Below are positions 1-57,602 of a stretch of 64,000 nt of DNA, piece by piece; the first letter of the stretch is position 1; each line of letters starts with the position of its first letter. Below the pieces are notes generated by a model. It searched no databases and was not told the origin of the DNA. It worked only from the letters and a program-made list of their open reading frames with translations. The DNA is from Vermamoeba vermiformis (Eukaryota). The stretch spans positions 310,001 to 374,000 of the forward strand of contig JBEWZL010000276.1 in assembly GCA_045837725.1 (NCBI GenBank), given 5' to 3'. Position numbers and translations under genes: made by a program.

Positions 1-541
1 ATTCTGGTGATAGTGACTCTGATGCTTCAGGTCCAAGTTCTCCAAAGAAGCCAGGCTAAACAGGCCCACAGACCAAGCAACATTGCCTCATTCATAATCT
101 TATCTATACTAGCAATATATCACTACATATAACATAAATAAACAGATTTTATCAAATACCAAAAGTTGTCCGGAAACAAATAAAGTATGTTGGGCATAAA
201 GTATGTCCAGTACATCCATGACAGACATACCATCCGGGACACTCAAGAACGAGTGGATGTGAGGTCTGTGGTCCAATTTTTTCAGATGGGACAATTGCCA
301 GAGCAACTTTTATAATGCTCCCTACAAGCAAACAGAGTAAATTTCATTATTAGACTTCACTGGACACCCTGTCCCGTGTGGAAATACAATGCTGCTTCCT
401 GTCTGTATCTTTGCCCTACCTTAAGGGCTAACCCATTAGCATATCCAGATATATTTGTTCCATAAAGTACTAATGTTTGAGTCATCTACCAATAGAACCA
501 GATTGTTGATCATGGTTTGTTCCTCAAAACGGAAGAGGTGT

Positions 542-2470
542 TTATTTGCTTTGTTTAATTTCCAACTTGATATTTTGGTGTGCAAATTTGGCAGCCTCCT
601 CAGCGACCTTCATCGCCTCCAACAACTCACTTGAGTTCGTGGTGAGTGGTGCAGTCAGGTGCTGGTTGAAGACATCCTCCACGTAGTGTTCGTTGCGCAT
701 GCCAATCAACATGCAGTCTACAGGTGTTGACAGCACTGCATTGGTGGCCACCAGTGACAGTGAATGCAGCTGTGGCGCACGTGAGGCAAATGCAGGTGTC
801 TGAATGACAGCGCGGTACACGTGACTGGCCTGTTGATAGCGGTGCTGGGCCAGCAGGGTGAACAGTGTGCTCCACAGTCGCTCGAGGGCGCGCTGATACT
901 GCTGCAGCCAGGTCTTGAACTCGCTGCTCTGTGGCAACTTGCCATCATCGCCGAGCACGTGATTCAAGTGCGGGGCAACACTGTCGCGAATGAACGACTC
1001 GAACTTGTAGAGGTCAAAGTACGACAGGTGCTTGTGCAGTGTGTGCGCGACATTGATCTGCGCGTCAGGCACGTGATAGGCCGTGGTGGTGGCATACTCT
1101 TGTTCTAATTTTAGCGCATGTTCGAATGCAGCGTGCAACTCCGTAGTTAAGTCTTTGCCTAAATTTAACGGAGTAAGTACGGATCATTTCCTAATTAGGC
1201 AATCACTCACCAGTGGGCTGGATCTCAGGGATCACGAGCCGCGCGAGCTGACCATCAACCAGGGCATTGAGTGGTCGATTGGACAGCGTGACTAATTTGG
1301 CTTGCTGTCGCAGATGTCAGCGATGACACGTGTCACATGTCACAGTGCGTACCTTGGCGCGCTCCACGAGTGACAGTTGACCATTCGTTGACTGCAGTGC
1401 GTCGTGTTCGAGCAAATTGAGCGGGAACTGAATCACGCGGAAGTGATGTTCGTTGCCCTTGACTTTTTTGGCAATGTTGAGCATGCGATCGAGATCGAGC
1501 TGATCACGTGACCAGACATTCGAGGACACGCCGTAGAATTGAATTCTTCCGCGCGCGACTTCCTTTTCGAGCGCTGCAAATGCCTGTTCGAGCGTCGCTT
1601 CCCACACCTGCAAAGATGTATCTGGCCGGAGATAGTGCTCGGGATTGTGCAGGAGATACACGTCCAATGTTTCCAAATTTAGCCGCGCCAGTGTTTGCGT
1701 CAATTGCTGTTCGATCCAGGGCGCGGAGAGACAGTACCACATCTGCTCGGACAATTTTACCATATCTGGAAATGCCTGGCCCTTCGACTCCTGATCACGT
1801 GCCCACTGCAGATTTGAATTCTGCACATAACCAAATTTGGAAATGACAATCAGTTCGTCGCGCTGCACGACCTTGAGATGGCGCGTCATTTCATGAATCA
1901 CATCGCCGATCACGTGCTCGCTGCCACCGTCGGAATAATTCGCGCTGGTGTCAATCACATTGCAGCCCAGCTCCAGTGCGCGCATGCTAAATTAGGCAAG
2001 TCAGTCACGTGATGAGTGTCAGAACGAGCACGCACAGCGCGTGATAGTGACCGTGATCGTGCACGCGATACGCGCCAAAACCCACGTGACTGGCCGTCCA
2101 GCCCATCGACCAGGGCCGGAGATGTTCCGCGCTGAGTGCTGCGTGGAGCTGACGCGTGGCAGAGTGGTGGTGGCCGTGGTGATGCGCGGTGTTGTTATTA
2201 GCATTGTTCTTATTATTATTGCTAGTAGCGACGAGTTCAAAGCGGCGCTTAGTGCCAGCAACAGATGCACCGCCCGCGAGGGGTTTGGGGGCACTGTGAT
2301 GACGCACTGGCAATACTGTGAGCTCGTGGTCGTGTGGTAAAGTGCGTGGTATTAATAGCAATATTATTGATAATATTTGAAATATTATTAGGGGATTTAT
2401 TGGAGGTACCTTGCTTGAAGAACAGATTCAATTTGGAAATTGACGCTACGACTCGAGTTACACGCTGCAT
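542..2470 (-). CDS. Aldo/keto reductase family protein, multi-exon, with a possible N-terminal targeting peptide
   Basis: GFGAYR, IDTSANYSDGGSE, ISKFGY and LDVYLLHNPE AKR motifs; exons join through GT-AG introns. Confidence 0.8.
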
Positions 2471-2680
2471 GATATGCTCTAATATATTTATATACTGCGC
2501 ACGAATGATCTTCAAGTCGTGTGGTGTTTCAATCGCGACAGACAGAAGAATCAGATTCAGATCTGGTACACGGACACGGGAGTGACTGAAACAGTGCCTT
2601 AAGAGGCGAGTCGAGTGACTACATCAACAACTACCACCACCCGTGTGTTATTGAATATACATTGCTCGTTTTATTGTTCT

Positions 2681-3103
2681 CTAGCGCGGATCGTTGATCG
2701 GCGGCAGAGGTCGGTACTGCGTTACATGCGCGAATAGGCGCTGCTTGATGATGCGTCCATTGCGGGCAGGGACATTCGCGCGCTCGAAGCACACGTAGCC
2801 ATTCTGCAGCGCGAACAGCGTGTGATCGCGACCCATGCCCACACCTTGACCTGGATGTACCTTGGTGCCGCGCTGTCGCACGAGTACATTGCCAGGTCCG
2901 ACCTCCTCGCCTGCTGTCACTTTGAGACCGAGGTACTTGGGATTGCTGTCGCGTCCGTTCTTGGACTTGCCGCCTGACATTTTGGTGGCCCATCTGACCT
3001 GCAGATTGGGCAGTGGTGCCGCACTGAATGCAGAGCAGACTACAGGCCTAGTATTGGCATATTGTTGCGAGTTGAGTACTGTCTTGACTACTGCGCGGAA
3101 CAT
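2681..3103 (-). CDS. MRPL27: Mitochondrial ribosomal protein bL27m
   Basis: [24 protein letters not shown]...[12 protein letters not shown]...GRDHTLFA is the L27 signature, preceded by a presequence. Confidence 0.93.
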
Positions 3104-3314
3104 GTTCTGTAAGGAAGGGATTAGATCTGCTCTCGTGCCAAAGAGTGGTGTATTATTGCAAGGAATATTGCGCGGTAATTATTGATGTATAATGCACACT
3201 AGTGTAGTATTAATAATAGCGATTATAACGAGCGTAATGCTGGGGTCAGGGAAAATAATAATTGAAAATAAATTAATTATTGATAATACATAGTAATATT
3301 TAAAATCATACAAC

Positions 3315-3341
3315 AATAATAATAATAATAATAATAATAAT
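3315..3341. repeat. (AAT)9 microsatellite in an AT-rich intergenic region
   Basis: Read directly from the sequence. Confidence 0.9.
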
Positions 3342-3909
3342 TGATCGTATTGCTTAGCAGTGCACAGGTATTTGTTATTATTATCGGACACTATAATGGT
3401 ACGCTGGATCTGCACTCACCACTATTATCTACTACTATTGCAATGAACTATCAACGGTGATATCTACAATACTATAGCACTAATGGCCTATATTAACAGC
3501 GTGGTTATATATGCACCAGTGGTGTTCACTGTCAGTTTGCAATGAAGTTGTTGTTTGTCAAATCCGCACTTGAACACCACGACTGGTGCGTTTACTCGAG
3601 TCTTGATGCATTAATACGCGATATTATCAATATTAAATACACGGCTTGGTGGCGAGTTATTCGAACCGCACGATGGAGCGTCACTCGCAGTGGTTCAAGA
3701 TCGAGGTACGATGGCACTGAAGGCGGATCAAGTCTCACGCAACGGCGTTAAATTGACCACTTATATATTAATACAAGAGCTCTACCGCTCTGTGAGCTAC
3801 TAATATTCATATCAATACTGCAGAATTAATAATTCTGTACCACGAAATATTTTTTATAAAATTTATTTCCAAATTAGACACGACCCACTGACCACGTGAT
3901 TTCTACCAG

Positions 3910-6165
3910 GGCAATGTCTACACTAAGGGCACACTGCGCATGCGTGAACAGCGCATTGACACGCACTGCAAACAACGCGCAGTGACACGTGTCAAACTGT
4001 GCACTGACCACACGTGCAGCTGTGTCAACCAGGGCTACGAGTGCGCACGTGAGGTACAGGTGTCAGAGGAGGAGGTATACGCGTCACGTGATCAGCTCGG
4101 CAACACGTGTCCGCACTGTGGCTGCAATGGACTCTGTCAAAATCGATCTTTGCAGTTGTTGCACGAGTCACGTGTCAGACTTGAGGAGTGTGGTCCGAAC
4201 CTCGGTTTGACACTTGTCACATGTCAAGCTGTACCACCAGACACAGCGCTAATTGAATGGCGCGGAGTAGTGCTGGTTGACACGTGTCATTTGACAGGTG
4301 TCACTTGCCCTGCTCGACCAACACGTCACGTGTATCACTGCAAGCACGATCAGCTCGTGATTGACAGCACCATATTTGGCAATGAGGCGCGGTTCATTCG
4401 TCGCACTGCTGACTCCCGTTCAGTGAACTGCAGACTCGTGGAAAAATTCATCGGGGAAGAACTCCACGTGATTGTTGCCAGCAAGTGTCACATTGAAGCT
4501 GACACGCCGCTGTATCTCGACGAGAAACAATTCGAGCGGAACAATTTTCAGCCAAGGCAAGGTTCAGCACGTGCCCTGGTGAGCATGGCAGAGATCGATG
4601 AAGATCTGCAAAGTATACTCGTAGATTTGCAGAAATTTCGATTGGCGTCCGAACCAAATATGGACATGGAGGAGATCACCATTGAGGATGAAGTGCCAGT
4701 GCCTAATTTGGAGGTGATCACCATCGAGGATGAAGTGCCAGTGCCTAATTTGGAAGAGTCACGTGCCACACCAAGCACGTCTAACACTGAGCAAGTGACA
4801 CCTGTCACAGTTGATCCAGAATTCGAGTTGACATATGGATACGTGTCACGTGATCCGTTTCAGCGCCTCAAAGAACTTGAAAAGCAGTTGACAGTGTCAT
4901 CCGGTGTCAATCACGCAGATGTCAATCACGCAAGTGTCAATGACCTACTCGCAGCGAATGTCGATCACGTGCCACTCAACATCAATGTGCTGCTAGCAGA
5001 GCTCAAGCAGTGGCGGCGCACCTACGAATTGAATCTCGCTACGAGATCGCTCGTACATATGCCATATTTGGAAGAGTACCACAAACTCGCGGAACAATTC
5101 AATCACGTGCCCGTATTTGGTGCTCAAACTTCGCTGGGGCTCATCGCACTGCTCAAAAATCACGTGACAACAATGTTCCGCTTCAATGGTGGCACGTGTC
5201 GCATGTCATTCAGCGATGCGGAACAACTCCTCACATGTCTCGAACAAGATCTCCGCTGTCCTTACTGTCACGCAGGTCACTCCACCCCTCTGTGTGACAC
5301 GTGTCAATCACTGCGCACCGATCCGTCCGAACTTCACTTTGACAGGTACGCGCCAACAAAACAGTCAATCTTTGCAAGTCTGCGTGCCAAATCGGGCAGT
5401 GAATGGTTGCAAGAATTTGTCGTGAAAGAAATTCCACAGAAACAACCGCTTCCCACGAGTTTGGTGGCACTCGAATTGTGGCACGTGGAGCACTTTGACA
5501 CCGCTAACCTGTCACGTGCTCTGGTGGCACTCACTAACCTCCGCGTGCTGCGATTGAATGGCACGCGCATGCAGTGGACAGCAGCGTTGACAGCACTGCC
5601 ACTCTGGGAACTGCGCCTCAAACATTGCAAGAATTTGTCGTCACGTGACTTGCAGCTGATTGGTGGCATGACGACACTGCGCTGTCTCGATTTGACGGGC
5701 TCAGCGATGCACGTGACACACGCGTTCAGTGAACTGCGCGAGCTGAAAGAGTTGCAACACTTGACGCTGGACGACACTTCAGTGAACGACGCTGGCCTGT
5801 TGCCACTGCTGCTGACCTTGCCGCTGGTGACACTCAGTGTGCAGCACTGTGCCGCACTGCACCTCACGACCCTGGCACACCTGTATCACATGACTGCCCT
5901 GCAACAGCTCAGACTGGCACAGTGCCACGTGAATACACCGCTAGTGACGGTGATGCTGACACATCTGTCGTGCTTGACTTATTTGGATGTGATGAACGTC
6001 AATCTCAAAGTGACACCCAGTCTCGTGGCAGTGCTGTCGTACGATGACACCAAGGTCCGACACGTGGATTTGCGCGGCTGTGCGATGGACAGCGCGGAGC
6101 GGACCAAACTGAACATACTGGGCCCCACCCTGGCCTCCGACCAGCATCGAACTGTGCTGTACTGA
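3910..6165 (+). CDS. Degenerate SET-domain protein with Cys-rich pre-SET-like region, CxxC pairs and C-terminal leucine-rich repeats; 5' exons uncertain (probably ~3670-3790)
   Basis: LIEWRGVV, IDSTIFGNEARFI, VNCRL and LHVIVASKCHIEAD are SET-like; LRVLRLNGT, LRCLDLTG and LQHLTLDDT are LRRs; likely acceptor ctaccag at 3909. Confidence 0.7.
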   Translation, partial: GNVYTKGTLRMREQRIDTHCKQRAVTRVKLCTDHTCSCVNQGYECAREVQVSEEEVYASRDQLGNTCPHCGCNGLCQNRSLQLLHESRVRLEECGPNLGLTLVTCQAVPPDTALIEWRGVVLVDTCHLTGVTCPARPTRHVYHCKHDQLVIDSTIFGNEARFIRRTADSRSVNCRLVEKFIGEELHVIVASKCHIEADTPLYLDEKQFERNNFQPRQGSARALVSMAEIDEDLQSILVDLQKFRLASEPNMDMEEITIEDEVPVPNLEVITIEDEVPVPNLEESRATPSTSNTEQVTPVTVDPEFELTYGYVSRDPFQRLKELEKQLTVSSGVNHADVNHASVNDLLAANVDHVPLNINVLLAELKQWRRTYELNLATRSLVHMPYLEEYHKLAEQFNHVPVFGAQTSLGLIALLKNHVTTMFRFNGGTCRMSFSDAEQLLTCLEQDLRCPYCHAGHSTPLCDTCQSLRTDPSELHFDRYAPTKQSIFASLRAKSGSEWLQEFVVKEIPQKQPLPTSLVALELWHVEHFDTANLSRALVALTNLRVLRLNGTRMQWTAALTALPLWELRLKHCKNLSSRDLQLIGGMTTLRCLDLTGSAMHVTHAFSELRELKELQHLTLDDTSVNDAGLLPLLLTLPLVTLSVQHCAALHLTTLAHLYHMTALQQLRLAQCHVNTPLVTVMLTHLSCLTYLDVMNVNLKVTPSLVAVLSYDDTKVRHVDLRGCAMDSAERTKLNILGPTLASDQHRTVLY
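4675..4754 (+). repeat. Two-copy 42-bp in-frame tandem duplication (ITIEDEVPVPNLE x2)
   Basis: atcaccattgaggatgaagtgccagtgcctaatttgga recurs at 4675 and 4717. Confidence 0.95.
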
Positions 6166-6264
6166 CCGTGCAGCTCTTGTATTGATCTCGCAGTGTATCT
6201 TTTAGTGTAAATAGTTTGTTTATTCAAGCACATTGGGGTGCATAACCTTCATTACTTGCACTAT

Positions 6265-9200
6265 TTAAGGGGCATATTGCTGCAACAGTGCGACAAGAGG
6301 CAACTGTGCGAGCGAGGGATCAGCAGCCACAGCGCGCGTGAGGGCAGGTTGTATCTTGCTCTTGTGATTGAGATTGGCTGCCACTAGCGCCTGAATGACG
6401 TACAGCACCGCGGGGACTGCGTGCTGATGTTGCGCACAGTGCTGCACGAGCTCGTCACAACTTTTGAGTGCCTTGAGGTACTGCAGAGCATTAGCACCGA
6501 GGCTAGTATCACTAGTATACGATCACCCTACCTGTTCAGTGCGGTACTGCCACTCAATCTGCTTCAGGGTCAGTGACACGTAGTCCACGGAAGAATTGCG
6601 GAAGAACCCCCGAGCTCGCGTGAAACACTCGAGGACAGCAGCGGACTGGCCCTGCGAGCTGTAGTGCTGTGCGAGCTGCAGCCACGTGACACGATTGCGC
6701 GGATCAGTGCGCAGGGCCTGCAACAACGCCGCCTTGCTCTGCTTGTCTTGTTGTGGGTGGACGAGTGACAGCTGACGTGAAGTGTCACTTTGAAGCTTGC
6801 GCTCGAGTGTCAAGTGCGACAGCTCAGTGAGCAGTGCTGCAGCGCGCTCTCGATGCGTCACGTGCTCAGTGGTGACAGCCAACAACACGTGTATGTGTGA
6901 CAGCATCAATTTGAAGCACGTGACGTAGTGCGCGGGCAGGTGATGATGTTGACACGTGTCAAACAGCGTGTTGAGCTGATGCACGGTGTGTTCAGTCACG
7001 TGATCTGAGAGCAGTGCAGCGGAATAATGACACGCGGCGAGAAGGAACCACGCGACAGCATCACGTGGCTCGTGGTGCAACAGTTTGCTGGCCCAGGACT
7101 TGGCGCGCAGCACAGCACTCATGCGCACGTGCTTCTTCTCGCGCCCACTCATCAGCAGCGACACCGTGTCGAGTTTGAGGGCCTCTTGCAGTTCTGCTGT
7201 CGCATTCGTGTCGTTGAGTTCGGTACTCCTTTTTTGGGCATTGACCGCGCGGAACAATGCCACACGATTGGAGACCTCCAGCGCTAATTGGGGCTGCAAA
7301 TCAGACATTGCCTTATTTAGAATCAGTCGGCGCAAGTGACCCCAGAGCAGCATGTCATCAGGTGACTTGTGCACGGCCCTGATCAGCTCTTTGACAGCAG
7401 CGGAATAATTGTTCTGGAATCGGTTAGCGGAACATTCTATTTTTAGCATCGCTTACCTTCGCCACGTGCCAGTGCGAGTTGAGCAAATTGACGGCCGTAT
7501 TGAGTGGATCGGTGAGTGACACTTGGTGGCACTTTGACACGCATTCACTGAACATCTTCTCGTCCTCCGTCAGCACCGCAATCACTGCGCCAAAAATAGC
7601 TGCATCGCTGTCACGTGTCACAGTGGTAGCCACGTATTTCTTGAGCTCATCGAGATCGGTCTTCTTTCCTTTTTTGGCAATGCTGTAGCGCAGCTTGATA
7701 CTCAGGGTGTCAATCAGCTTTGCCATATTTGGTGCTGCCTGTCGTGCTTGACCTAATATAGTAACTGCAGCGGGAAGATCGCCAGCAGTGACACGTGCCA
7801 GTGCCAAATTTAGCAATACGTCGACGGATGCAGTCTGGTCCAAGGAGCTATAAATAGCCAGCGCCTCGTCGTTGACACTCGTTGACTGAGTGCGATGAGC
7901 GATCTGCGTCAACACGCGCGCTAAATTTAGCTTCAATGTGTGCTGATGTTGCGCGGAATAACTCTTAATTTCCGCTGCTGTCACTGCTATCCTCAAATAG
8001 CGCAGTGCGGACTGCAGGGAGGCAAGGGCAGTGTCCGATCGATCGGTGCTGCACGCGAGGTCTAAAAATAGCACCGCGAGCTGATTGAGTGCTGTCACAT
8101 CTGTCACGTGCCGGTCCAAGTACTGCACGGCGGCGAGTCTAATTTTAGGAGTGAGCGGCTGTTGACGTTGATGCGTGACATATGTCATCAGCTGCACTGC
8201 AAGCGATTGGTTCGGATCGAGATCGTGGGCATTGACCAAATAAGGCAATACCTGATCCGCGTGGTCCTGCGACAGGCGCGACAAGATGACAGCCAGTGTC
8301 GTCCACGTGGCCGCGTCACCAGGGTCCACGCGCAGGGCATCGCGCAGCACTGACTCGCACAGCTTGACGTGCACTGCGGAGCTATTTTTAGCGCGCAACA
8401 GAGTGCGAGCTGACAGCAGTGCCACATTGCACAGTGCTGCCACCTGTCGTTCACTGAACCGCGCTGCCACGATGAATGCATGCTGTGCCTTATTTAGCAA
8501 TGTGTGATCACGTGACTTGTGTTCGCGAGTGCGGAATAATTGTGCCAGTACGCAGCCGAGGGCTGTCCAATAGCGCGCCAATTTGTCACGTGACGGGGTG
8601 GCAGATTGCTGCTCGAGATCGATCGCTGTTTTGAAGTGTTGTTCCGCTTGTGCGAGTGATTGGTCTGCAGTCACGTGATCGCTGAGTTCGAGTGCAAAGA
8701 CTGCCTGAAAATAGAAGTTGACAGCGAGATCTGCGTACAAATCTGCGCGGTCTTTTTCGAGCTGAATGGCGCGCAAATAGGACTTGGTGCCCGCCACGAG
8801 CTTGTCTTTCACTGAACGGTAATGTTCCGCCACTGCATCACGTGACAGATCGGTGTGGTGATGGCGGAACAAATAGTGTTGCGTGTAAATGTCACCGAGC
8901 AGCTTCCACACGGAGATCAAGTGCGCGTGACCGAGCACGTGCGCTTTGTTCAAAATCTCCTCGGCGAGATTGAGCTGATCACGTGCTTGACGGAATCGAC
9001 CTTCCTTAAATAGCTTGCGCATCAACAACAAGCTGCTGTTGGCCACACCTAGCGCGCGGTCAATACAGCAGTGCGGCTATTAATAGCGCAATGTACTTAC
9101 CTTGAATGGCGAGCTGTTGGTACGCGCTCTGCAGCACGTGATTGGTCACGTGACTCTCGTGCAGACATTTGCTGTACTCGTCACGTGCTTCTTCGATGAA

Positions 9201-12172
9201 TCCGAGGCGCAGTTTGATATTGCCAATTATGGTAGCAGTCCAGTGCGCGTAGAGCTGTTGATCACGTGACTCAGAACTCAATTCTTTGGCCCGTTCTGCC
9301 ACGCGCAGTGCTGCTGTCAACTTGCCTTGACGTCTGCGGGTGACATCAGTACCTGACCACAATGCCCAAATTAGGCAATCGCATACCTGTAGCACTCAGC
9401 GAGCGACAGCCAAGCTTTGAGGTGTCGCGGTTGTTGGCGGAGAAATTTCTGGAAATTGTTGACAGCATTGACATAGTCCGCAGCCCGCTAGTACGCGTGA
9501 GTCACGTGACACATTAAGAGGAACACTTACCAAATATAGCAATCCGAGTGGAAAGAGTGTCCACGTGGCATTGACAGCGTGCGACAGCTCGTTCAGCAGT
9601 GCAATGCAGTGCTGCAAGTCACGTGACGGGTCTTGGAGCCAGGCGGACAGCAGACGAGTGCCAGCGAGCGGACTGACCAGTGCCAGCAACGTGTCATCGC
9701 GTGTCATTGGATCACCGCCGTGGTGATAGTGCACGAGACGACTGTTGGACAGCAACACGCGCAGAGCACGCAGCCAGGACTCGACAGCAAGTGCTCTATT
9801 TTTAGGCACAATCGCCCCGACAGTGTGGTACCACTCGCCGAGCAGACACCACGCGAGTGACACGTGCTGGAACAAGAACGGGGCGTGTGCAGTGAGCGAG
9901 AGATCGAGTGCGGTCAACAGCTGTTGGTGGCACATCTTGCGACTGTCTCCGCCCAGCCAGAACTGCAGTCGCGCCAGTGTCACGTGATATTCTATCGCCT
10001 CTTCGTCTTCGCGGTGACGGTGGCGCAGTGTCACGTGTTCTTTCGCGCGCTCTTGCATCACGTGATCGATGGCACGTGTCAGTGCAGCCTTGGTGTTCAT
10101 CAGTTCGAATAGATCCTCTTTGGTCAGAGTTTTCGCTGAAATTTCCTCATCAGTCGGCATGCGCGCATCACGAGCCTGACTGATCTGCGCAGCGGGAGAA
10201 TTGAGCACGTGATGCAGATAGTGGTTCTGTTCGCGGAGTACACTCGGCAATGCGCGACACCATGCCAGTCGCGTGTGAATCACGTGATAGTCCTCGTCCT
10301 GTTCGTCTACCAGGGCACTCAACTTGGTGTAGAGCTGCGTGGCCGTGCTGAGATCGCGCGTGAGATAGGAGATGTGCGCCATGCCCTTCAAGCCCTGCAC
10401 ATTCTCGCTGTCGTACTTGAGCACGCTGGACCAGATCTGCTTCACGGCCGTCAACTCACTGCGCGCCATGGCACACTCCGCGAGCAGCACGTGATACTGC
10501 ACCCAAAATCGGCTGTGCAGCACTGCTTGGTGACTCGCGCGCTGTTTGATCACTTCGAGGCCGCGCTTGGCCAGTTCAATGGCGCGCACGTAGTTCTTGC
10601 TGTCTAAAAATAGCCTTGCGAGACAGTAGAGTGCCATCAAGCTGTCATTCGTGTCACGTGCCTGTTCCTGGTGGTGTGTCAAAATTGACATTGCTTTGTG
10701 CAACAATTCATTTCTATAATGGGCTGCGTGCTGTGGTCGTCTGATACTGTCACGTGTCAGCTCTGGGACAGGTGTTGCTATAAATAGATACAGCGCGGCT
10801 AAATAGAGCCAGCCCAAACGTTGCGGAGGCAGCAATGAAATACCAAAAATAGGCTCGTCTGTGAGTTCAGTGACAGCAGGATAATAGCGCAAGAATCGCT
10901 GAGTGACACGTGTCACATCTGGCCACGTGATCGGTGTGTCATCACGCTCAAAGAGTGTCAAGTAGTACAAATAAGGCAATGGCGAGTGTTGCGGGTGTTT
11001 GTTGATGAATGTTTGCAAATATTCTATCAGCTGTTTCAGCAAAGGTGCGGCTTTGACAGGTGTCAATGCAGTGAGTTGCAGCTGTCGCATCAAAAATGTC
11101 GTGTACTGCAACAATACTGTCAAATAATTGTCACCTGATTCTGACAGCAGTGTTTTGTACAGCTGTTCCGTCTAAAATAGGCAAGTGTCAATCGATAGTC
11201 AGTGAATGAACTGCGTCCAATCCTACCTGCGCGAAATCACGTGTCAAAATGTCATTCAAGTACTCGTAGCGGCGGTCATTCACTGCGCTGCGTATTTGTT
11301 CGTAACGGGCACGACGATTCTCTTCGCCAATGTCAATCTCTTTCTTGACACTCGCGTCACGTGCTTTATCACGTGTCTCGCTCGCAGGTGCACTCATGAC
11401 ACCTGTCACTTGCGCGATGAGCACCGTGTCATCGACGTCAGTGAACTCTTTGCGCGCCCATATGATGAGCAGCTTGAGTGTCTCTTCGTGCTGACTCTGT
11501 TCGCGCACGTGACGCAGTTGGGACAGTGCTGCGAGTCGCTCTTTGACACCTGTCTCACTCGTGTCCCCGCTCAATGACGCAATCAAGGTCTGCAAATGAG
11601 TCTGGGCCTGTGTTGCCGTCAGTCAGTCCCTCAGTCGCTACACCCCCCACACTACGTACCGCAGTCCAGCTCTTGTTCTCGAGGCAGCTGCTGATCACTT
11701 TGCTGAGCGTGGCTTTGTACTTGGCGTGCGCGGGACTGGTGGGCAATTAGCATCGCTGTGTAGTGCATATGGAGTACTCACCCCATGATGTCGAGGATCT
11801 TGTCATAGGCCTCCGCGAGCTTAGTCTTATTGTTGGTTTTGGAATACAGATCCGCCAGACCCTTTTTTATAAAATATTAGCATATGGTAAATTATTTAAA
11901 AATCTTTTGCAATCGATTTTGTGGTGACAATTATGCCCAATACACACCTGCCAAGCCACAATATTTTTGGGCTCCAGTTGTGTAGCTTGGATGTAGGCCT
12001 GTTCACCCTTCTGCACTTGTCCGAGATTGTATTGCGCCAATCCACTAAATATAAATGCGTTGTAATTATTTTTGTCCAATTCTAAGGCTTGTTGGGCGTA
12101 TTTGAGAGCTGAGGCCCAATCTTTGGCATCTAAAGCCTTACGCGCATCTTTCAGCGCAGCGTTAGCACTCAT
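6265..12172 (-). CDS. SKI3: Large TPR protein, Ski3/TTC37 superkiller complex subunit, multi-exon
   Basis: N-terminus ALKDARKALDAKDW...LELDKNNYNAFIFSGLA...AYIQATQLEPKNIVAWQ; QGKLTAALRV segment; TPRs throughout. Confidence 0.8.
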
Positions 12173-12422
12173 GATCTACGAGTCTATAGATGTGGTGCTA
12201 ATGGTTCAAACGTTTCTACTTTGCGTAACTACAAGCAAACAAAAACTTGTCGTCACAAGCCGCGCACAAACATCAGTCCTCCATGTAACACTATAATAAC
12301 GTCATTTAACACTATAACACAGTTCCGCACTTTATTTCGCACGATAAATCAAACACACTCCCAAAACTGTCCGCATCTATCCTCGAAACAAAGCTTAATG
12401 TCGCGTTCGAACCACTCGAGCT

Positions 12423-14490
12423 CTAGTTTACGGCCTCGAGTTCAGCAATAGCGCGGAAGAACAAATCGAAGATGTTGCCGTTGATGAAGTCGTTGTCGAC
12501 AATATTGACCAAGAAGTACTCGTCGTGCACGTGTTGAATCAGCTGCTTGCTCTCGGACTGCTCCTCGTAGATGGTCGCCCACTTGGAGAGCCACAAGTTG
12601 AAGGCCTCTTCTTTCCAGACCATGAAGCTCTCAGGGTCCACCACCGTGGGCTGCACAATCTCTTTGCCTGGGAACACACCCCACGTGACTGCTGTCACTC
12701 CTTCGGTGTTGCTGTAACTCTCACCCTGTTCATGAATGCACCGAGTTAGACATGACACGTGTCAAACACTGACGCACGACATTACCTTCATGTTGACGGC
12801 TTGGTACGAGCACTGCGGCAGCTCGCGGAGCACGCGCAAGAGTACTTGCAGGTGCTGCGGTGAGGTGAAGAACTCGACGTAGGCCTTTTGATAGACGACA
12901 CCATTGGGACCACCCCAGCCCACGGACTTGTCACTCGAGGGGGCACCATTCACGCGTGGTTGCGAGTTGATGGTCCAGAATCCCTTCTGATTGATGGTGA
13001 GGAGATTGGTCTTGATGATGTTGGTCTCCAGGCCAATGGAGCCCTCAATCCAGGGCAGCTGATCGATCTGTCCGTCGAGGTACTTGACAAACACGCTGCT
13101 AATGTCGTCTGGACTGCGCAACATTTCACCCCACTTGCCGCGCAGTTCAGCGGCTTTGACGGGTGCTTGGAACAAGTGGTAGTCGCTCAGTTCACCAAAG
13201 GCTGGTGAGCGCGAGTCACCCCAGCGACCGTTAGGGAAGTCGTCCCAATTAGCCGTGCGCGACAAGTAGGACTTGCTGCGATTGGCCCAGAAGATGGGAC
13301 GCACGTCTTCTTTGGTGCGCTTCTCGCTGACTGGTCTGCGCCAGGGCAGTTCACGCAAGATCTCGTTGTCAACGAGTCCGAGCTCTTTGATCACTTCAGT
13401 CGTGACGACTTCGCGGTTCAAGGTGTAGAAGTGCAGGCCTGGCACTCCTGCATCCAACAACTTGCGACACATTTCTACGGCGAGTTTGACACCGAGCTCT
13501 TTGATCGCAGCGTCATCGTCCTTAATAGGCTCAATAGCAGTCTTGATTGCTTCGGGCAGAGGTACATTGCACATCTTGGAGATGTTGCGCAGTGAGTGGT
13601 AGCCTTGGATCGGCAAAATACCTGGCAATATTGGGCACGTAATGCCTGCATTGCGGCAGTCTTGCACCCACTTGAGGAAATCTTCGGCAGAGAAGAACAT
13701 TTGAGAGACAACGAAGTCAGCACCTGCATCAACTTTCTCTTTGAGATTGAGAATGTCTTGTTCGTAAGTAGGAGCGTCAGGGTGGCCATAGGGATATCCG
13801 GCGACAGAAATGCTGAAATAGTCTCCAAACTCCTCACGAATTAAGCGCACAAGATCGGCAGCGTATTGGAAATCGTTGGCGGCAGGATTCCAGTTGGGCA
13901 AGTTCTGGGGAGGATCTATTACAGAAATTATCATTAATTGAAGTGCATATGAATGAATTAATAGGGTTTTGCTATATTTAGCAGAATACAAAACGACGCA
14001 AAAAAATTCGATCGGACTTGATCAAAATTTCGATTGCTTACCTCCACGAAGCGCCAAAATGTTTCTAATGCCCTTCTCTTTAGTCTTGTTGAGAACTTCA
14101 ATAATTTCAGCGCGAGTCATTGTGTTACAAGTCAGATGCATGTTGGCAGGCATGCAGCAATAATTCTGAGCGTTTGCGCAAATATCAATCGTCTTCAGTG
14201 AATCTCCATTGCTAGAACCACCAGCACTCCAAGTGACATCAATAAATAGCTGAAAAGTAACGGTTAGTAATTAATTTCCAGCGAATCCAAGCTCCCGATC
14301 GGATTTTGCGTTTAGAAACGATACTTACAGGGCTCAACGTTGCCATTCTATCAAATCGAATATATAAATTGACGGCACCTTCTTCCGTCTTGGGAGGGAA
14401 GAATTCGAATGAGAAGAAGGGTTTCTTCTCATCGATGCGAGCTTGGATCTTCTCGATCAACTTGAAAGAGTTGGCTTTGGGAGTGTTCAT
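12423..14490 (-). CDS. MTHFR: Methylenetetrahydrofolate reductase, eukaryotic type with C-terminal regulatory domain
   Basis: [69 protein letters not shown]. Confidence 0.97.
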
Positions 14491-14671
14491 TGCTATTGAC
14501 TACGTGAACTGACTGGAGTTAGGTGCCTTCAACACGTAAGACTGCAACAAATAACTCCGGGGCCTGTGCAAAAAAACAAAGCCCAGCCTGTCACGTGCTT
14601 CTTTACCGCATTGACCCGAATTTGACTTGAATCGGCACCTTATAGACCCGCACACCTCCGCCAAAGGTTAT

Positions 14672-15721
14672 TTACATATCCAACACGAGTACAGTGTGTC
14701 GTATTCGTTGCAAGAATCGATGGGACCAGTGCCGCGCAGTGAGTGCCGCGTGGATGTGACGCGTCTGTTGGAGCACATCTGTCGCGTACTGGCTGCTGCT
14801 CAGTGCACTGTGCTGTGTATCATCCGCAGCACTGCTCGGCACCTCATTGCGTAGCGGTGTGAGCTCGTCAGCGGTGAGTGTGGTGGCAAAGATGACGAGC
14901 AGTTGCGACGGGTGCACGATCTGGTCTGTGACGCGCAGTTCAGCGATTGAATCGTCGAGCAGGGCTTCAAACAGATCACGTGACTGCTCTGTCAGGGCGT
15001 GATCGGGCGTGTTTTTGACCACTACAATGGGGTACTCGCACGATGTCAGCTGTGATTGGTGAGTTGCGTACTGCCATATTTGGTAATTACCTTATCCAGC
15101 AGCAGAAATTTCAATCGGTCAGTGTCGATGTCACCTGGCACAATGAGCACGTGCTCGCTGTCCTGCACGGCAGTCAGTCCTCAGGTGCAAGTGTCACGCA
15201 CTCACCTTCACGAGCAGCGCTGTCAATGTCTCGATGACACGTGTCAAGTGCCAGTACGATGCAGCCACCAGATTGACACCTGTCCGTTGCGGTGTCAGCA
15301 CTGCTGTCAGTCGTGCCCCCACGCGGTACTGGCGCACCCAATGCAGAGCACGTGGTGCCGCGTGTTGCCAGTGCGCAGCGAGTGCGCGATCAAATTGCGC
15401 GGCGAACTCTGCAGAGGTGAGTCTATTTATAGCTCCACACGTGCTAGCTTTGCGCGTATTTATTGCAGAATGGGAGTGTGGCGCGTGTGATACCCAAGGT
15501 AAGGTCAACAGTACCGCGAGTATCAGCACCCTGCATATTTATTCAGTAATTAATTTCTTGGTAATTATTCGCGCACTGTTGCGAATTAATACGTACAGCC
15601 AACTCAGTTTCCACGACAAGGGCCAATCCGCACTGTACACGCGCTGTCGAAACTTTTTTAATCTTTCCAGCATTGCCGGTGCATCAACAACATTAATAGG
15701 CCCTTTAAATGAGGAAGTCAT
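14672..15721 (-). CDS. Single-pass membrane protein of unknown function (possibly LAP1/LULL1-like), about 4 exons
   Basis: Splices to MTSSFKG...WLVLILAVLLTLPWV (TM segment)...FEALLDD...HRFLQRIRHTVLVLDM. Confidence 0.55.
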
Positions 15722-15940
15722 TGTGATTGACAATCTGCGCTTTGAAATTAATCTCACAAACTTTTTCTACTCCGGCTCAGGTGTTATTGTGCTACGTGAA
15801 ATATTCTGGCGACCTCTACAGTATGCCTCGGTTGTCTGTTGTGTCGCGCAAATATTCTAGGACTAGTCACTGACGGGTGGCCCCTAACGCGGCTGCGTGA
15901 AAAAACAAAAACATTTTGTCTTTGCGAACGAAGAACAGAC

Positions 15941-17110
15941 ATGTCACGTCACAGCAAGAACAATACTTCGCGGCCTATATTTACTTATGCCGAGCGACAG
16001 AAGCTGAAGGACTACGGCACTATTAAACAACGGCTCGGTAAAGATTCGCTGAAGGATTTTGACGCGTGTTCGTTGTGCTTGCATACTTTAGTAATGCCGT
16101 TGGCGTGGTATGGAAATAATATATATTGTTGCATATTAGTGCTCATTTCTCGACAGCCCTTCAGGACACCTGTTTTGCAAGGAATGCATCTACGCTGCAC
16201 TGTTATCACAAAAGAAGGAAATCAAACGACAAACTAAATTATATAAATTACAAATAGAGAAGTCTAAAGTGAGTAGTATTATTTAATTTAAATTTAAGCT
16301 TTCGCGTTGAAAATTCAGTAATAATATTTTTAAAAATTCAGCTAGACTTGGCTTTTGATAAATATACTCAACCGTGCATTTATAAAGTGACATATTGTTA
16401 CGAAAAAATATTCTTAAATGAACAGAAACATTGCCGAAAGGATCGGGTTCACCACGGCCTCAAGCCAGTAGCATGCTTACAATTCATTTTCTAGGAAGCA
16501 GAAGAGATGAAAAAGCAGCAAGAGCAACAAGCACTGCTGGAGAAGTTGGATCAAGCTGAGCGCGGTGAGACGGTAACCGCCGCCACATTAGAAGAAAAGA
16601 AAAAAGTCGCGAGCTATTGGGTGGTATGTCATCATCATATATATGTCTATTAATGCCACGATGCTTGTTTAATTAATCAACGGAACTGGACAGCCCTCAG
16701 TCGCGCCTGATGCGGTGAATGAAACGATCAAAAAGCCCTCAAAACAGACCACGTGCCCCGAAGGCAAGCACGTGCTTTCACTGAAAGATCTGATTGAAGT
16801 GCACTTCACGGTGAATGCGAGTGAGGCAGAGCAAGACAAGTTCAAGTACATGTGCCCCGTGTGCAAGAAGACCCTCAACAACACACCCAAAGTCGTGTTG
16901 ATGAAGAACTGTGGGCACGTGATCTGTCACACGTGTCACAAACAGTTCGGTGAGGACAAGCAGTCACGTGGCGAGGGCAAGTGCGCGCAGTGCAGCGAAG
17001 AGTGGCGCGGTGACAGTGAAGTGATTCCCCTCGCGAGTGAGGGCACTGGTCACGCGGGGCATTCGTCCAAGATTCAGGCCACTGTCGTCACTGTACGACC
17101 CAGCTTTTGA
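15941..17110 (+). CDS. NOSIP: Nitric oxide synthase-interacting protein (RING/U-box-like)
   Basis: MSRHSKNNT...FTYAER...YGTIKQRLGKDSLKDFDACSLCL; C-terminal YMCPVCKKTL...CGHVIC. Confidence 0.93.
16341..16472. other. Candidate structured element in NOSIP intron 2
   Basis: Nested complementarity: GCTA/TAGC, TGGCTT/AAGCCA, CCGTG/CACGG, GTGA/TCAC, CCGA/TCGG. Confidence 0.35.
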
Positions 17111-17252
17111 CAGCTGTCAAACAGGTGTCAGAGGAGCATGACAGCTCATGTAACATAGGTGTAAACTTCAGCGATAAATAATACAAAACAAAAACGACTT
17201 TATACAAGTAAACGCAGTGACAGGAATATGTACATGGCAACACGTGTTGCAG

Positions 17253-18506
17253 TTAGAGGTAGTGCGCAGCGTCGTCTTTGACTGGCTCGCGACGACTGGG
17301 CGTGGGTGTGAGATCAAGGGTCAAATAGGGCCCTGGAGTCTGTGTGTCCTCGAACAGAATGGCCTGAGCTGAGCTTGGGTGGTACTCGTGACTGGGAGGT
17401 TCGTGGTGATAGAGTGGCCAGGAGCCCACATCTTCGATGTCCGACATGGCCAGCAGATCCATCTCTTGCGGGTAGTTCTGATAGTACGCATTCGCATTGG
17501 TGTTCGTGGGCTGCACGTGAGATCGCGGGGCATAAGAGTTGTAGGCAGGTGTGACGTGACTCTGCGTGTTCTCGTGATTGTGTTGCATGACTGGCACGTG
17601 TTGCGCTATGACAGGTGTCACACTTTGATGTGGCACGTGGTTGACATGGCTAGGCACGTGATTGGCATGCCGCACTGGATACACTTCTGCTGTCACCATG
17701 GCCGCTTCAGGCATGTGCTTGGGCTCGTAGCTCGGTGGCTTGATTTGATCACGTGGCTGCGGGGCCAGTGGTACCTCACCAGGGCCAGCACGTGACGCGC
17801 GCAACTGTCTGTTCTCTTCTTCGAGCTCGTGCAGTCGCTCTTGCAGTGCGAGAATGTAGTCGACAGCGAGCGACATGACGAGCGACTGATTCAACTTCTT
17901 GTGGTCTTGACACTGCGGCACGAGGCGGCGCAGTTCTGAGATGGATTCGGTCATCTTGCTGCGTCGTTGTCGCTCTTTGACTTTCTTCATTGCATTGGTC
18001 TCGATCTTTTTCGTCTTTTTTTCTTCGCGCCCTTCTTCGCCTTGCTTGTACTTCCTGCGGATAGAGTTAATAAAAACAGATCGTGAGCAGAAAAATAGTT
18101 GCAAATATCAGAAATAAACCTTGCTAGTATTATCCTTGTCGTAATCAATCAAACAAACGGTTATTTCGAACTATCTCTGGTGTGCATACCATTTTGAGAA
18201 TCCACAAACACGCTTTCCTGTTTTACACTCTTCTGTACATATATGTTTCTTATATTTAGTTTTTGAATTCGATGATGGTTCGCTGAATTTACGGCCCAAG
18301 TCCGACGAATTGTCATTAGATACATCTAGTTCGTCTTCTGAAGAGTTTGTATCCTCCTCATAATAATCCATTTCAGCCATAGTATGGCCTTGATAGCCCA
18401 TCCCCTATTATTTTGTCAATTATTATTCATTACAGCTAAAAGCTTTTTTTCCTACTTGAAGTCCGCTCGTGCTCAGTTCTTGCCGCTGTGCTAGTTTAAC
18501 ACTCAT
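17253..18506 (-). CDS. bHLH-leucine zipper transcription factor, 3 exons
   Basis: KKVKERQRRSKMTESISELRRLVP...KKLNQSLVMSLAVDYILALQERLHELEEENRQL. Confidence 0.88.
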
Positions 18507-26264: not shown

Positions 26265-28832
26265 TTATTCGAGGTCGTGCAGTGCTTGGAAAGGTGGGCC
26301 TAATTTTTCACAGCGACGTTTGTAAGCTTCAGCGCCGAGCTCTTGGCGATCAGTTTCTAAGGTCATCAATATCTCGCGAATGGTCATAGTCTGGTCCTCA
26401 AGCTGGATCAGAGGGATGTTGTATTGCACGTGGAAGCTGTCAGTGATGCCGAGGTGTTTCATGGCTTTAGATTCAGAACTCGTGGCGAGGACCATCAAAC
26501 GCGTCTTGGGCGGTACTTTGGAGACTAGAGCCGCGTTAGTACTGTTCACGAGTAATGCGTGTACGAGGAACTTACTCAGTGTTAAGAGTGCTTGCAGAGC
26601 TGAGTTCTGATAGAGAGGACCGACACTTGAGTACGAAATGATGCGCTCAATATTGTCGAGAATGATGAGGGCAGTGGGGGAGCGGTACGCGTCGAGAAAG
26701 ACTTTGTTGAGAGTGGAGGCGACGTTAGCTTCCATGCCAATGAGTGTTTCAGGGGAGACGACTTTGATGAAGGGGAACGGACACTGTTTGGTGATGCGCG
26801 CTGCGAAGCCTGTCTTGCCGCAGCCACGTGGTCCTTGAATGAGACACGTGACGAGACGTGTCACAGGACTGCTGGCGACTTGTGTCATGTAGACCTGCAT
26901 CTGATTGAGCAGTGCTTGGTACTCATCGGACCACACGATGAAGGGCTGTGGCATCAGCGTTTGAATGGTGTCGTTGTCCACACCAAACATGGGCTTGACG
27001 TCACTCACTGCCTTGTCAAAGTCAGCACGTGTGACTCGAATCTTGTCTTCGTCCACCACGTGTGACATGTCTTGCAAGCTCGTGTGACGCATCAGCGCGA
27101 AGGACCTGGTCAACTGTCAGAACTACTGCTGATTAGTGGTGAGATCTAGACGTACCAAGCAGCGCGCACAACGTTCTCGAGGTCAGCACCGGAGTAGTTC
27201 TTGGTCACTTTGGCGTAGTCTTCGAGGTGGATCTCGGAGTCCCAGGCCGGTGTGTCGCGCAAGTGTTTGGTGTGCACGCGCAACACTTCCAAACGACCCT
27301 TCTCATCGGGCAGACCGATCTCCAAGTGCAGATCAATGCGTCCTGAACGAATGACTGCCTCGTCAATCAGTTCAATTCTGTTTGTCATGCCGACGAGCAG
27401 CACCTGTGGTCAATGAATCAGTCACGTGATCACACCGCGACACTACAGGCCTATCTCACGTACGTTGTTTATGCTGTCAGTGCCGTCAATCTTGTCGAGC
27501 AGTTGATTCACAATCGTGTCGCCCGTGTTGTTCGTGGATGTGCCTCGCTTGCGACAGATCGCGTCAATTTCGTCGATGATGATCATGTGCAGTTGCGAGT
27601 TCTCTCCTGTGGGAGGGTCAGATCACGCGTCACACTTCCTAATATGGCAATTACCTTTTTGTTTGTACTCCAGTTCAGCCTCGGCAAATAACTCGCGAAT
27701 TTTCTTCTCGGCCTCACCGACCCACTTGTCCAATATCGAAGCGCCGCTCACTTTTTTGATCTTGCAGTTCAACATCTCGCCCAATCGTCGCGCCAGTGTT
27801 GTTTTGCCCGTGCCCGGTGGTCCGTACAGCAACACACCCTTAGTGTGCTTCATTTTGAAGAGGTAATATGTTAGTACTGAGTAGTTATTATTAATAAATA
27901 ACTTACCTTCATCTTGAATTTTTTCACGGTGGTAGAGCTCAACAGTCGCGATGAGAAAGCTTTGCGGAACAAATCGTGGAATTCGCGGCTAAAAATAGCG
28001 TTAGTTGGGTCCATAAATAGCACTACTCACGCACCTCAAGCCACCAATCTCCCACACTTCTGGATCAAAGAACCCTACTTTGATGAGCTGTCGCACGGTC
28101 AGTGAGGTCTATTCCAAATATAGTAATGTCGTTGGTGGCACTTACATTGCGCTTGTCGTTGTCCGGTGCCGCAGCGCCAGTCTCGCTGAGCTGGATGTTC
28201 GAGTCGTAAGAAGCAGTCACCATCAGTTCCGTGTCAGTGTTGAGCACCGCGAATTCGTCGCTCTCAATCTTGCCTGATTTGGACTTGCCGACCACGAGCA
28301 CGGACTTGACGATGACCATAAAGTTCCACTCCTCGTACTTGACTGAGAATTTTTGGTTGGATGTGAATGTGTGTGAAAGGTACTTTTGTTTGAGGTATTC
28401 AGTGAATTTAGTAGTGTCGATGGAGACTTGTTCGGGGCTCTTCTTCTTAATTTTCCAGCTCACTTCCGTAAAAAGCACTGAGGCATCTGGAAAATAAAAT
28501 TTAAATTTCAACTGCCGATTTGAATCGAGTTAAATTTCTAATATTACGAATAGACAATACTTACTGGGGGCTTTGTCGATAATTTCAATCTTGAGTTGCT
28601 CGCCTAAGGAGCAAAAGACGTTGAGGCGCTGCACGGTGTTCATGCCGAGCTGTCCCTCCGCAATGCTGGCATGAGGCTCGTACAAATAGACGAAGAATGA
28701 ATTTTGTCCTAATAGGCGCAAGTATTTGCCTTGCTTCTTCCACGAGATGGCGTCCTTCTCGTTACAATACACCAGGTTTGTATCGTTGAGCGAATTGCTC
28801 GGAATATCAACGATCTTAACTTTAATACTCAT
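26265..28832 (-). CDS. NSF: Vesicle-fusing AAA+ ATPase NSF/Sec18, multi-exon
   Basis: [44 protein letters not shown]2 [17 protein letters not shown]. Confidence 0.9.
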
Positions 28833-57077: not shown

Positions 57078-57602
57078 AAGCAGAGGAAAGTTTTACAATA
57101 TTTACCCTTGTTTCTTTGTTTTGCTGGTTGTTTTGTTCGTAAATTGAAACAACGTGTGAAACTGTTCATAAAAAATAAGTGGTTGTGAACCTTGCTTTTT
57201 GGTCCACTTGCACCGCGTATTTGAGAGGTTTTCGTTCGTAAAAATTTTGGCATAGCAGCGGTTATTGTGCGTTTCGGTCAAGTTTCGGCAATTAGACTAT
57301 TTTACTAAATTTTAAGTCCGACTGTATCTCCGCCTTTGAGCACCGAGTAGCGGACACGAGGGGTGGGAGTCCAGCCGTTGTCTTTGCCTTTGAGATAACA
57401 GTCAAAAAATCGTCGCAAATCTTCGAGGCAAAATGCCGATGCCCCGAGATTCACTATATCCGTTTTTCTTTCTCCAATATTCCCCGTGGCTACCGAGGAT
57501 CTTTTTAGCAGCTAAACCTTTTTATATCTCCTATTTTTTTCTTCGCTTCGTCGTTAGTGGTTCAGCTGATCTCACTAAGAACAGAACAATGAATTTCAAA
57601 AA

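Follow-up and report, generated by a model that had tools for sequence, protein, structure and literature searches.

Several families of symmetric DNA words densely occupy particular genes in a 64-kb window of the Vermamoeba vermiformis genome

Here, we analysed a stretch of 64,000 nucleotides from Vermamoeba vermiformis (contig JBEWZL010000276.1, positions 310,001 to 374,000; hereafter 'the window'), in which short symmetric words, foremost CACGTG and the 12-mer TGACACGTGTCA, occur in some genes far more often than expected. All motif counts given below refer to this single 64-kb window of the genome. The window is eukaryotic, as spliced RNA contigs (run X5) define 11 introns of 43-313 nt, ten of them with GT..AG ends (the exception is the stretch 14250-14329). 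Its genes encode MTHFR, tubulin, a HECT ligase, a bHLH factor, a TPR protein (SKI3-like), an aldo/keto reductase, an Rtf2-type RING protein and mitoribosomal L27; the coordinates of the features that matter for our argument are collected in Table 1.

CACGTG was found 135 times in the window, compared to 22.9 ± 4.8 copies in 100 dinucleotide-preserving shuffles (largest value 37). The copies are spread unevenly: against a first-order Markov expectation, we counted 97 versus 10.4 in the segment 0-18 kb, 32 versus 9.8 in 18-46 kb and 6 versus 4.4 in 46-64 kb. The perfect 12-mer TGACACGTGTCA is present in eight copies (0.01 expected), exactly at the coordinates listed in an earlier, sequence-only reading of this DNA (1324, 3983, 4278, 5295, 6950, 10904, 12753 and 15235). 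The 24 CACGTG which that reading had counted in 3890-6070 and the eight in 6680-7135 were likewise found, at 3893-6061 and 6683-7126. Its account of the distribution held for the following features: tubulin carries a single CACGTG, the insert at 55.7-57.6 kb is free of the motif (no CACGTG lies between 46027 and 57788), and the SET-LRR, SKI3-like, aldo/keto reductase and bHLH genes are among the dense open reading frames (ORFs) with 6-10 CACGTG per kb. Of the 82 ACGT tetranucleotides at 4-12 kb, 64 belong to a CACGTG.

Could an ordinary cause, such as codon or dicodon bias, His-Val-rich repeats, degraded dispersed repeats or an assembly artefact, account for this excess? CAC and GTG are indeed the preferred codons for His and Val, local duplications occur (a 42-nt tandem at 4667-4750 and the His-Val-rich tail of the bHLH protein), and an order-4 Markov model predicts 106.6 CACGTG, which is close to 135. 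The excess stands at order 3 (61.3 expected), while most of it is absorbed at order 4. The order-4 null nearly absorbs the signal because it is built from CACGT and ACGTG and hence largely contains the motif; in the dense ORFs these pentamers number 88 and 87 against 81 CACGTG and hardly exist outside of it. In our dense coding set of nine ORFs (9,921 nt), the 81 CACGTG compare to 24.2 in synonymous shuffles, to 7.7 after codon permutation and to 39.5 (largest value 53 of 500) when protein, codon usage and codon-junction dinucleotides are all kept, so that the excess survives codon-preserving shuffles; it was seen in each frame. For the SET-LRR gene alone, 24 copies (9, 10 and 5 in the three frames) stand against 6.9 in synonymous shuffles and 2.3 after codon permutation. 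Nor is the motif confined to one reading frame: the 92 sites in the 12 ORFs used for the frame analysis fall into frames 0, 1 and 2 as 40, 37 and 15; sites in the third frame depend on Cys or Trp being encoded. Those in frame 1 call for CGT, a minor Arg codon that makes up 14% of Arg codons outside the motif (ACG: 23% among Thr codons); of the 53 CGT codons in the dense genes, 30 lie within the motif. A compositional explanation is excluded by these shuffle nulls.

Degraded repeats do not explain the motif either. The flanks of CACGTG are random beyond ±3, a repeat search returned only motif-centred similarity and the one 42-nt tandem duplication, with no dispersed families beyond the motif itself, and alignments with orthologues show substitutions rather than insertions at motif sites. 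We rejected a dispersed repeat, miniature inverted-repeat transposable element or double-hairpin element for want of similarity beyond the core and of insertion gaps relative to orthologues. Long hairpin elements were rejected as well, since perfect palindromes stop at 12-16 nt with arms of at most 7-8 nt and no longer repeat families were found. The window sequence recurs at ≥99% identity in the X5 RNA contigs and in two metagenome runs (water and aquifer) that stem from other studies, which argues against an artefact. Among the read differences listed for 761-1500, 0 of 14 fall inside a motif, an uninformative result as only about 0.6 were expected by chance. Altogether, we regard an ordinary cause as extremely improbable.

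The bases next to CACGTG are not random. Position -2 is a purine in 32/40, 34/37 and 13/15 sites of frames 0, 1 and 2, and position +2 is a pyrimidine in 31/40, 35/37 and 12/15; window-wide, the numbers are 109/135 and 111/135. These preferences are symmetric with the sites oriented by the sense strand. Since the same symmetric flank rule is found in every frame, the recognised word is R-N-CACGTG-N-Y on duplex DNA. Within single sites, the flanks at ±1 and ±2 are not more symmetric than their marginals predict (46 versus 39.6 and 21 versus 15.8). When we considered the amino-acid contexts able to spell CACGTG, 81 of 97 such opportunities in the dense genes do so, comprising 36/39 His-Val, 30/39 [SPTA]-Arg-[VADEG] and 15/19 x-Thr-[Cys/Trp] contexts. 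His accounts for 4.9% of residues in dense but 2.6% in sparse genes, and His-Val dipeptides for 11.8 versus 2.3 per 1000 residues. The motif thus imprints unrelated proteins, with histidine nearly doubled. As the sequence-only reading had suggested, the pressure acts at the level of DNA; frames, shuffles and opportunities show that neither one peptide nor codon usage is its target. The motif is also present in introns: two of the eight 12-mers lie inside introns confirmed by spliced RNA contigs, while 9 of the 11 RNA-confirmed introns lack the motifs. Hence, the pressure is shown to be DNA-level, frame-independent and strand-symmetric.

Such a pressure might be a molecular drive, in which a methyltransferase together with short-patch mismatch repair, or another form of biased gene conversion, turns near-cognate words into motifs, with protein constraint and codon selection setting how far each gene fills. 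A methyltransferase/repair drive has been proposed for HIP1 of cyanobacteria, and E. coli Vsr, acting at CCWGG, offers an analogue. The use of all frames, the rough doubling of encoded peptides and the near saturation of opportunities agree with a drive, and the pattern matches bacterial uptake sequences as characterised in PMC2817400. A deamination-repair cycle, however, gains no support from our data, as CpG observed/expected is about 1 throughout and no depletion is seen for CACATG and CATGTG, the deamination neighbours of CACGTG (6 in the 18-kb dense segment versus 19 in the other 46 kb).

A further point bearing on the drive is the distribution among genes. The ORFs for the aldo/keto reductase, the SET-LRR, TPR, Rtf2 and bHLH proteins, the ORF at 15147 and an AAA ATPase (26.3-27.1 kb) contain 6-10 CACGTG per kb, whereas ORFs at 35-41 kb contain 0-0.8 per kb at a GC content of 0.52-0.55 and a GC content at third codon positions (GC3) of 0.58-0.64. 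Under the junction-preserving shuffle, this sparse set shows no excess (7 versus 6.3 CACGTG). Only 7 of its 34 opportunities are realised (His-Val 5/9, [SPTA]-Arg-[VADEG] 2/20, x-Thr-[Cys/Trp] 0/5), although the two sets do not differ in codon usage outside the motif. A uniform process should have filled these synonymous opportunities, which speaks against a drive. Base composition was rejected as the cause of the split, as GC (0.52-0.57) and GC3 (0.58-0.68) overlap. A second symmetric word, TGACA-NN-TGTCA, nonetheless remains enriched among the sparse genes (3 versus 0.1). In favour of a drive, conserved proteins (the MTHFR main exon, tubulin and L27) offer almost no CACGTG opportunities, and in one relative, represented by a 559,355-bp contig, the SET-LRR gene, a dense one, has an orthologue with 67% identity and the sparse 807-aa ORF one with 89%; judged from this one gene pair, the dense genes may be the weakly constrained ones. 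Protein constraint, however, does not account for the synonymous opportunities left unused in sparse genes. The pressure is thus shown to be strongly gene-specific, even at synonymous sites.

CACGTG is not the only word under such pressure. TGACA-NN-TGTCA occurs 20 times in the window, and other spacers from 0 to 12 give 0-3 copies each, which reveals a strict 2-bp spacer; with one mismatch allowed, 37 copies compare to 4.4 expected. The halves TGACA and TGTCA co-occur with an odds ratio of about 29 (p = 2e-6), and the centre is CG, GC, GG or CC in 17 of the 20 copies. All nine centre variants named in the sequence-only reading are present, with position 17109 corrected to 17108. In one and the same set of exons, at least five symmetric families are over-represented together, namely CACGTG, TGACA-NN-TGTCA, CTA-W4-TAG, CC-W6-GG and TTCA-N-TGAA. 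In the nine dense ORFs, we counted 12 copies of TGACANNTGTCA (0.7 in synonymous shuffles, 0.0 after codon permutation), 9 of CTAW4TAG (0.1 and 0.0), 10 of CCW6GG (1.4 and 0.3) and 7 of TTCANTGAA (0.3 and 0.2). The five families exceed both coding nulls 3- to 90-fold and jointly cover 847 of 9,921 coding bases (about 8.5%). Window-wide, CTA-W4-TAG stands at 15 versus 0.60, 13 of them within the first 18 kb, and CC-W6-GG at 27 versus 2.05. CTA-W4-TAG is coding in both stop-free frames, yields unrelated peptides (LKIE, AIYS, LNLA, LFLD, PKIR, AKNS and others) and relies on the rarest Leu codons, CTA and TTA (4% each).

Masking the two known motifs left CCAAATATGG, CTAAAAATAG and GTTCAGTGAA among the most over-represented 8- to 10-mers in the dense block. 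A blind scan for half-sites separated by a spacer from their reverse complement gave as top pairs TCAC|GTGA (19 versus 1.1), GACA-N2-TGTC (18 versus 1.2), GCTA-N4-TAGC (5 versus 0.10) and TTCA-N1-TGAA (8 versus 0.42); direct repeats in the same design yielded AT-rich microsatellite-like pairs only. With both main motifs masked, palindromic hexamers number 342 versus 332 expected and show no general surplus, which favours specific words and not symmetry as such. The proposal of a single HIP1-like word therefore had to be given up: at least five families in the same exons, two of them AT-rich, fit several DNA-binding proteins better than one methyltransferase, and a drive would require several specific enzymes for words so unrelated.

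Alternatively, the words might act at the RNA level, the self-complementary sites pairing or binding an RNA-binding protein and thereby steering stability, localisation or splicing. The sites lie almost wholly in transcribed sequence, two of them centrally in short introns, and palindromes read identically in transcripts of either gene orientation. The flanks in sense orientation, however, are symmetric, as for duplex DNA and not for a single-stranded RNA site, RNA duplexes of the AT-rich 10-mers would be very weak, raw RNA reads show no preferred starts or ends, and most confirmed introns are, as stated, without motifs. We thus consider a role in RNA very unlikely.

Conservation was assessed in related DNA, for which a metagenome scan with MTHFR as query returned four contigs of 1.1-4.6 kb (L001-L004). 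L001 and L002 share about 84% DNA identity with the 3' part of MTHFR, whereas L003 (63%) and L004 (41%) offer no informative flanks. Among named organisms, the closest MTHFR proteins reach 50-56% identity and belong to groups that are not related to one another. In L001 and L002, two of the three CACGTG of the window in this part are kept, with 4/4 third codon positions in the kept sites unchanged against a background identity of 0.65-0.72. Both contigs have TGACAGCTGTCA at the place of TGACAGCAGTCA in the window; the difference is synonymous. Within the 60-nt MTHFR intron, they keep TGACA-GG-TGTCA (the centre is CG in the window) together with 8 nt upstream, while the remainder is barely alignable. 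For the SET-LRR protein, four database homologues (97, 67, 69 and 69% identity) carry 26-39 motif-compatible peptides per 1000 residues, at mostly common positions and with at most three private ones per peptide class. Compared with three of these orthologues, residues overlapped by motifs are identical in 102/123 cases (83%) and the others in 1145/1641 (70%; permutation p = 0.012). Judging from these alignments, the motifs are shown to persist in relatives. Some of the differences are of the kind a drive would leave: SRD in the window against ADD, PDD or SDD in the three SET-LRR orthologues resembles a gain of several bases on the lineage of the window, and some gains and losses are CpG transitions (Thr to Met, Val to Met). 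An identity of 88% between the dense TPR exon and its nearest database relative may speak against a drive. All in all, a drive appears to us a doubtful explanation, albeit one to be taken seriously.

Table 1 Features of the window and their motif content.
Feature	Positions	Strand	Content
Motif-dense block	545..18107	.	97/135 CACGTG and 16/20 TGACA-NN-TGTCA of the window; 97 vs 10.4 (first-order Markov)
Aldo/keto reductase exons	545..1991	-	8 CACGTG; 8/10 opportunities realised
Exon-like intron, 48 nt	1305..1352	-	TGACACGTGTCA at 1324-1335 and two more TGACA; spliced RNA contig of X5
SET-like/LRR gene, single exon	3916..6162	+	23 CACGTG (24 with 3893 just upstream), 4 perfect 12-mers, 5 CC-W6-GG; 24/27 opportunities realised; Pfam LRR_14
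TPR (SKI3-like) gene, several exons	6526..11622	-	42 CACGTG; ~9 coding CTA-W4-TAG in both stop-free frames; intron 7414-7456 supported by RNA contigs
MTHFR intron, 60 nt	12726..12785	-	TGACACGTGTCA at 12753-12764; spliced RNA contig
MTHFR main exon, contrast	12786..13915	-	Conserved, high read depth; CACGTG 0 vs 0.1 expected
ORF, no family assigned	15147..15857	+	4 CACGTG and perfect 12-mer at 15235
Rtf2-type RING gene exon	16673..17107	+	5 CACGTG; 5/5 opportunities realised
bHLH transcription-factor gene	17256..18053	-	6 CACGTG; C-terminal half rich in His-Val
AAA ATPase exon, dense but isolated outside the block	26268..27116	-	5 CACGTG; 5/5 opportunities realised
Sparse contrast genes (807-aa ORF, HECT ligase), similar GC/GC3	35224..41468	+	3 CACGTG in 4.2 kb ORF; 3/15 opportunities; nonetheless two TGACAGCTGTCA (37505, 40291)

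Several observations on individual genes were made in addition. In the SET-LRR gene, the copies of the 42-nt tandem duplication are 95% identical, and a 15-nt repeat (TGTCAATCACGCAGA-like) at 4894-4925 varies in copy number in the X5 RNA contigs (-9 nt, +15 nt). The 97%-identical homologue (P0121) has extra EVHVSEE repeats, and CAGGTG and TACGCG of the window stand at its His-Val. The basic region of the bHLH protein, KKVKERQRRSK, has the Glu and Arg-Arg of E-box readers, with Lys in place of the His of class-B factors, and its C-terminal half is full of His-Val (HVPSHVNHVP...), i.e. the protein itself bears the imprint of a word that is the usual target of such proteins. The bHLH gene sits within the dense block, but nothing in the sequence connects its protein to the sites. 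The segment 46000-64000 has a lower GC content (0.37-0.46) and few long ORFs; it includes an LRR-repeat ORF at 56247-57092 (GC3 0.37) and a PPR-like one at 58074-58538.

In the 5' part of MTHFR, the skipped stretch 14250-14329 reads CT..CA on the plus strand, and its joint carries one extra letter in the reads (T in X21, G in X5). Furthermore, X21 RNA reads join opposite strands in this highly covered gene at 12560/12674 (17 reads) and 14232/14510 (24 reads), probably as strand-switch artefacts of cDNA synthesis. When mapped to positions 1-20000, 3,023 of 4,712 raw X21 RNA reads showed 90-95% identity and 52 showed ≥99%; with read identity mostly at 90-95%, the species label of X21 covers clearly diverged lineages. 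The raw X21 depth (both mate directions summed) is about 280x for MTHFR and about 0.1x to 16x for dense genes. We did not use this depth as evidence for expression, since fast-evolving genes recruit fewer reads at such divergence.

Beyond the five families, masking of the main motifs (501-18200) brought up further recurrent words in several frames: GCGGAACA (15 copies window-wide and, for the block, 11 versus 1.4), AAAT[AT]AGGCA (10 copies window-wide, frequently followed by AT), ACCAGGGC (8), GATTGACA (18) and GCACTGC-type words. The palindrome CCTAATTAGG was found at 1190, 42302, 42688, 43563 and 58845; behind three of these copies, AAATGA follows on one strand. Position 1190 falls inside an intron confirmed by RNA (1159-1210), at a distance of 11 nt from its 5' splice site, and at least two other copies seem to be located just inside GT-starting introns of minus-strand genes; CCTAATTAGG may be an intronic element that is conserved, or may mark a small family of introns.

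But, what could read such words in the bodies of particular genes? CACGTG is known as class-B E-box or G-box of bHLH and bZIP proteins, and CC(A/T)6GG and CTA(A/T)4TAG as the SRF-type and MEF2-type sites of MADS proteins. The resemblance of TGACA-NN-TGTCA to a dimer site of TALE homeodomain proteins, noted early on, is borne out by three of the 20 copies, which equal the canonical TGIF1 site TGACAGCTGTCA, bound by two copies of the homeodomain according to PMC6158717. We tentatively favour, at somewhat less than even credence, that the words form arrays of sites for dimeric DNA-binding proteins, kept by selection as a mark on the bodies of particular genes. Under this proposal, dimeric proteins with sequence specificity would recognise the dense symmetric words on the DNA duplex, in exons and in a few exon-like introns: R-N-CACGTG-N-Y would be the target of a bHLH/bZIP-type reader, TGACA-SS-TGTCA that of a TALE-homeodomain-type reader, and CC-W6-GG and CTA-W4-TAG those of MADS-type readers. 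Selection would maintain the arrays as a chromatin or regulatory address on these genes, with every synonymous choice and many tolerated amino-acid choices being spent on spelling a site. Protein binding to the words, the identity of the proteins and the role of the mark are what we infer from sequence. A dimer reading the duplex is favoured because the flank rule is symmetric and the same in all three frames. The proposal as a whole is favoured also because the spacer is strict, the words are plural and factor-like without a general excess of palindromes, synonymous sites are switched on or off at the level of genes, an intronic copy is conserved and the spacing is slightly even.

Several points weigh against this proposal. 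To our knowledge, 5-10 sites per kb in coding DNA at a visible cost to the protein are unprecedented for regulatory sites, and the match of the words to classes of transcription factors draws partly on textbook consensus sites. In the one gene pair compared, the dense gene evolves faster (67% versus 89%), which is predicted also by a blind drive under protein constraint, and in the TPR exon, compared with its only close relative (P0129, 88% identical), residues in motifs are no more conserved than others (32/36, 89%, versus 429/493, 87%; p = 0.44). CTA-W4-TAG, CC-W6-GG and TTCA-N-TGAA were picked after viewing k-mer tables, so that their exact significance is overstated; it is unlikely, though, that their 13- to 25-fold enrichments would vanish. 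Finally, the sites are only slightly more evenly spaced than random and the signal is borderline (coefficients of variation 0.60 and 0.74, where the random 95% ranges begin at 0.64 and 0.73). Distances up to 600 bp between sites show no preferred value, and CACGTG keeps no fixed spacing to separate TGACA half-sites apart from overlapping forms. Selected arrays as gene-body marks might go further and constitute a combinatorial address code, in which palindromes of transcription-factor type in the coding sequence of a gene class recruit a gene-body chromatin state, e.g. for facultative silencing or licensing of stage-specific, fast-evolving genes, overriding codon choice and reshaping proteins. 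We deem such a code unlikely; if true, it would be a eukaryotic counterpart of HIP1 and uptake sequences with regulatory function and gene-level targeting. The probability that remains after all these readings belongs to mechanisms we have not thought of.

In bacteria, HIP1 and the uptake sequences are known cases of short words that fill genes and skew the proteome, and their cause is still debated. Our literature search, which did not extend to supplementary files, found no description of such motif saturation in a eukaryote; new here are the presence of several words instead of one and the gene-specific pressure. A eukaryote in which some genes devote about 8.5% of their coding bases to symmetric words resembling protein sites would constitute a clean natural system to address the non-coding information load of coding sequence, its cost to proteins and the contest between selection for binding and transmission bias, with neighbouring dense and sparse genes as a built-in experimental control. 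Uptake sequences (USS/DUS) of Pasteurellaceae and Neisseria are asymmetric and tied to natural transformation, whereas the words in the window are symmetric and several, and their host is a eukaryote with spliceosomal introns, for which we know of no uptake bias. In PMC2817400, uptake sequences are reported to double tripeptide frequencies, to prefer poorly conserved genes and to encode residues conserved like others. The window resembles them in the DNA-level accumulation, the approximate doubling of encoded peptides and the preference for a faster-evolving gene (one gene pair); motif residues are about as conserved as others in the TPR exon, unlike in SET-LRR (83% versus 70%).

HIP1 (GCGATCGC) of cyanobacteria is described, in PMC4390886 and PMC13756078, as having two cognate methylases, being conserved in evolution and following a quasi-periodic distribution. 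Compared to this description, the window shares a short palindrome far above chance, located in genes and in all frames, with sites that persist in relatives and a spacing that is somewhat regular, at borderline strength. It differs from HIP1 in belonging to a eukaryotic nuclear genome with spliceosomal introns, in having at least five words and not one dominant word spread evenly (97, 32 and 6 copies in the three segments of the 64 kb) and in a density that changes sharply between neighbouring genes, reaching locally about 10 per kb; a methyltransferase is only a candidate link here. Comparable to the proposed mark are marking motifs of animals, such as the pairing-centre and X-recruitment motifs and PATC (germline gene licensing) of C. 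elegans and the MSL recognition elements of Drosophila. Those are likewise short words enriched in domains or gene sets, which recruit chromatin machinery or protect from silencing; they are mostly non-coding and not known to override codon or amino-acid choice. With sites of dimeric transcription factors (E-box/G-box, TGIF/MEIS-type TGACAGCTGTCA, SRF, MEF2), the core words, spacers and symmetry are identical. Such sites, however, are normally found one at a time or in small groups, within promoters and enhancers, while in the window they run through exons at 5-10 per kb and reshape codons and amino acids.

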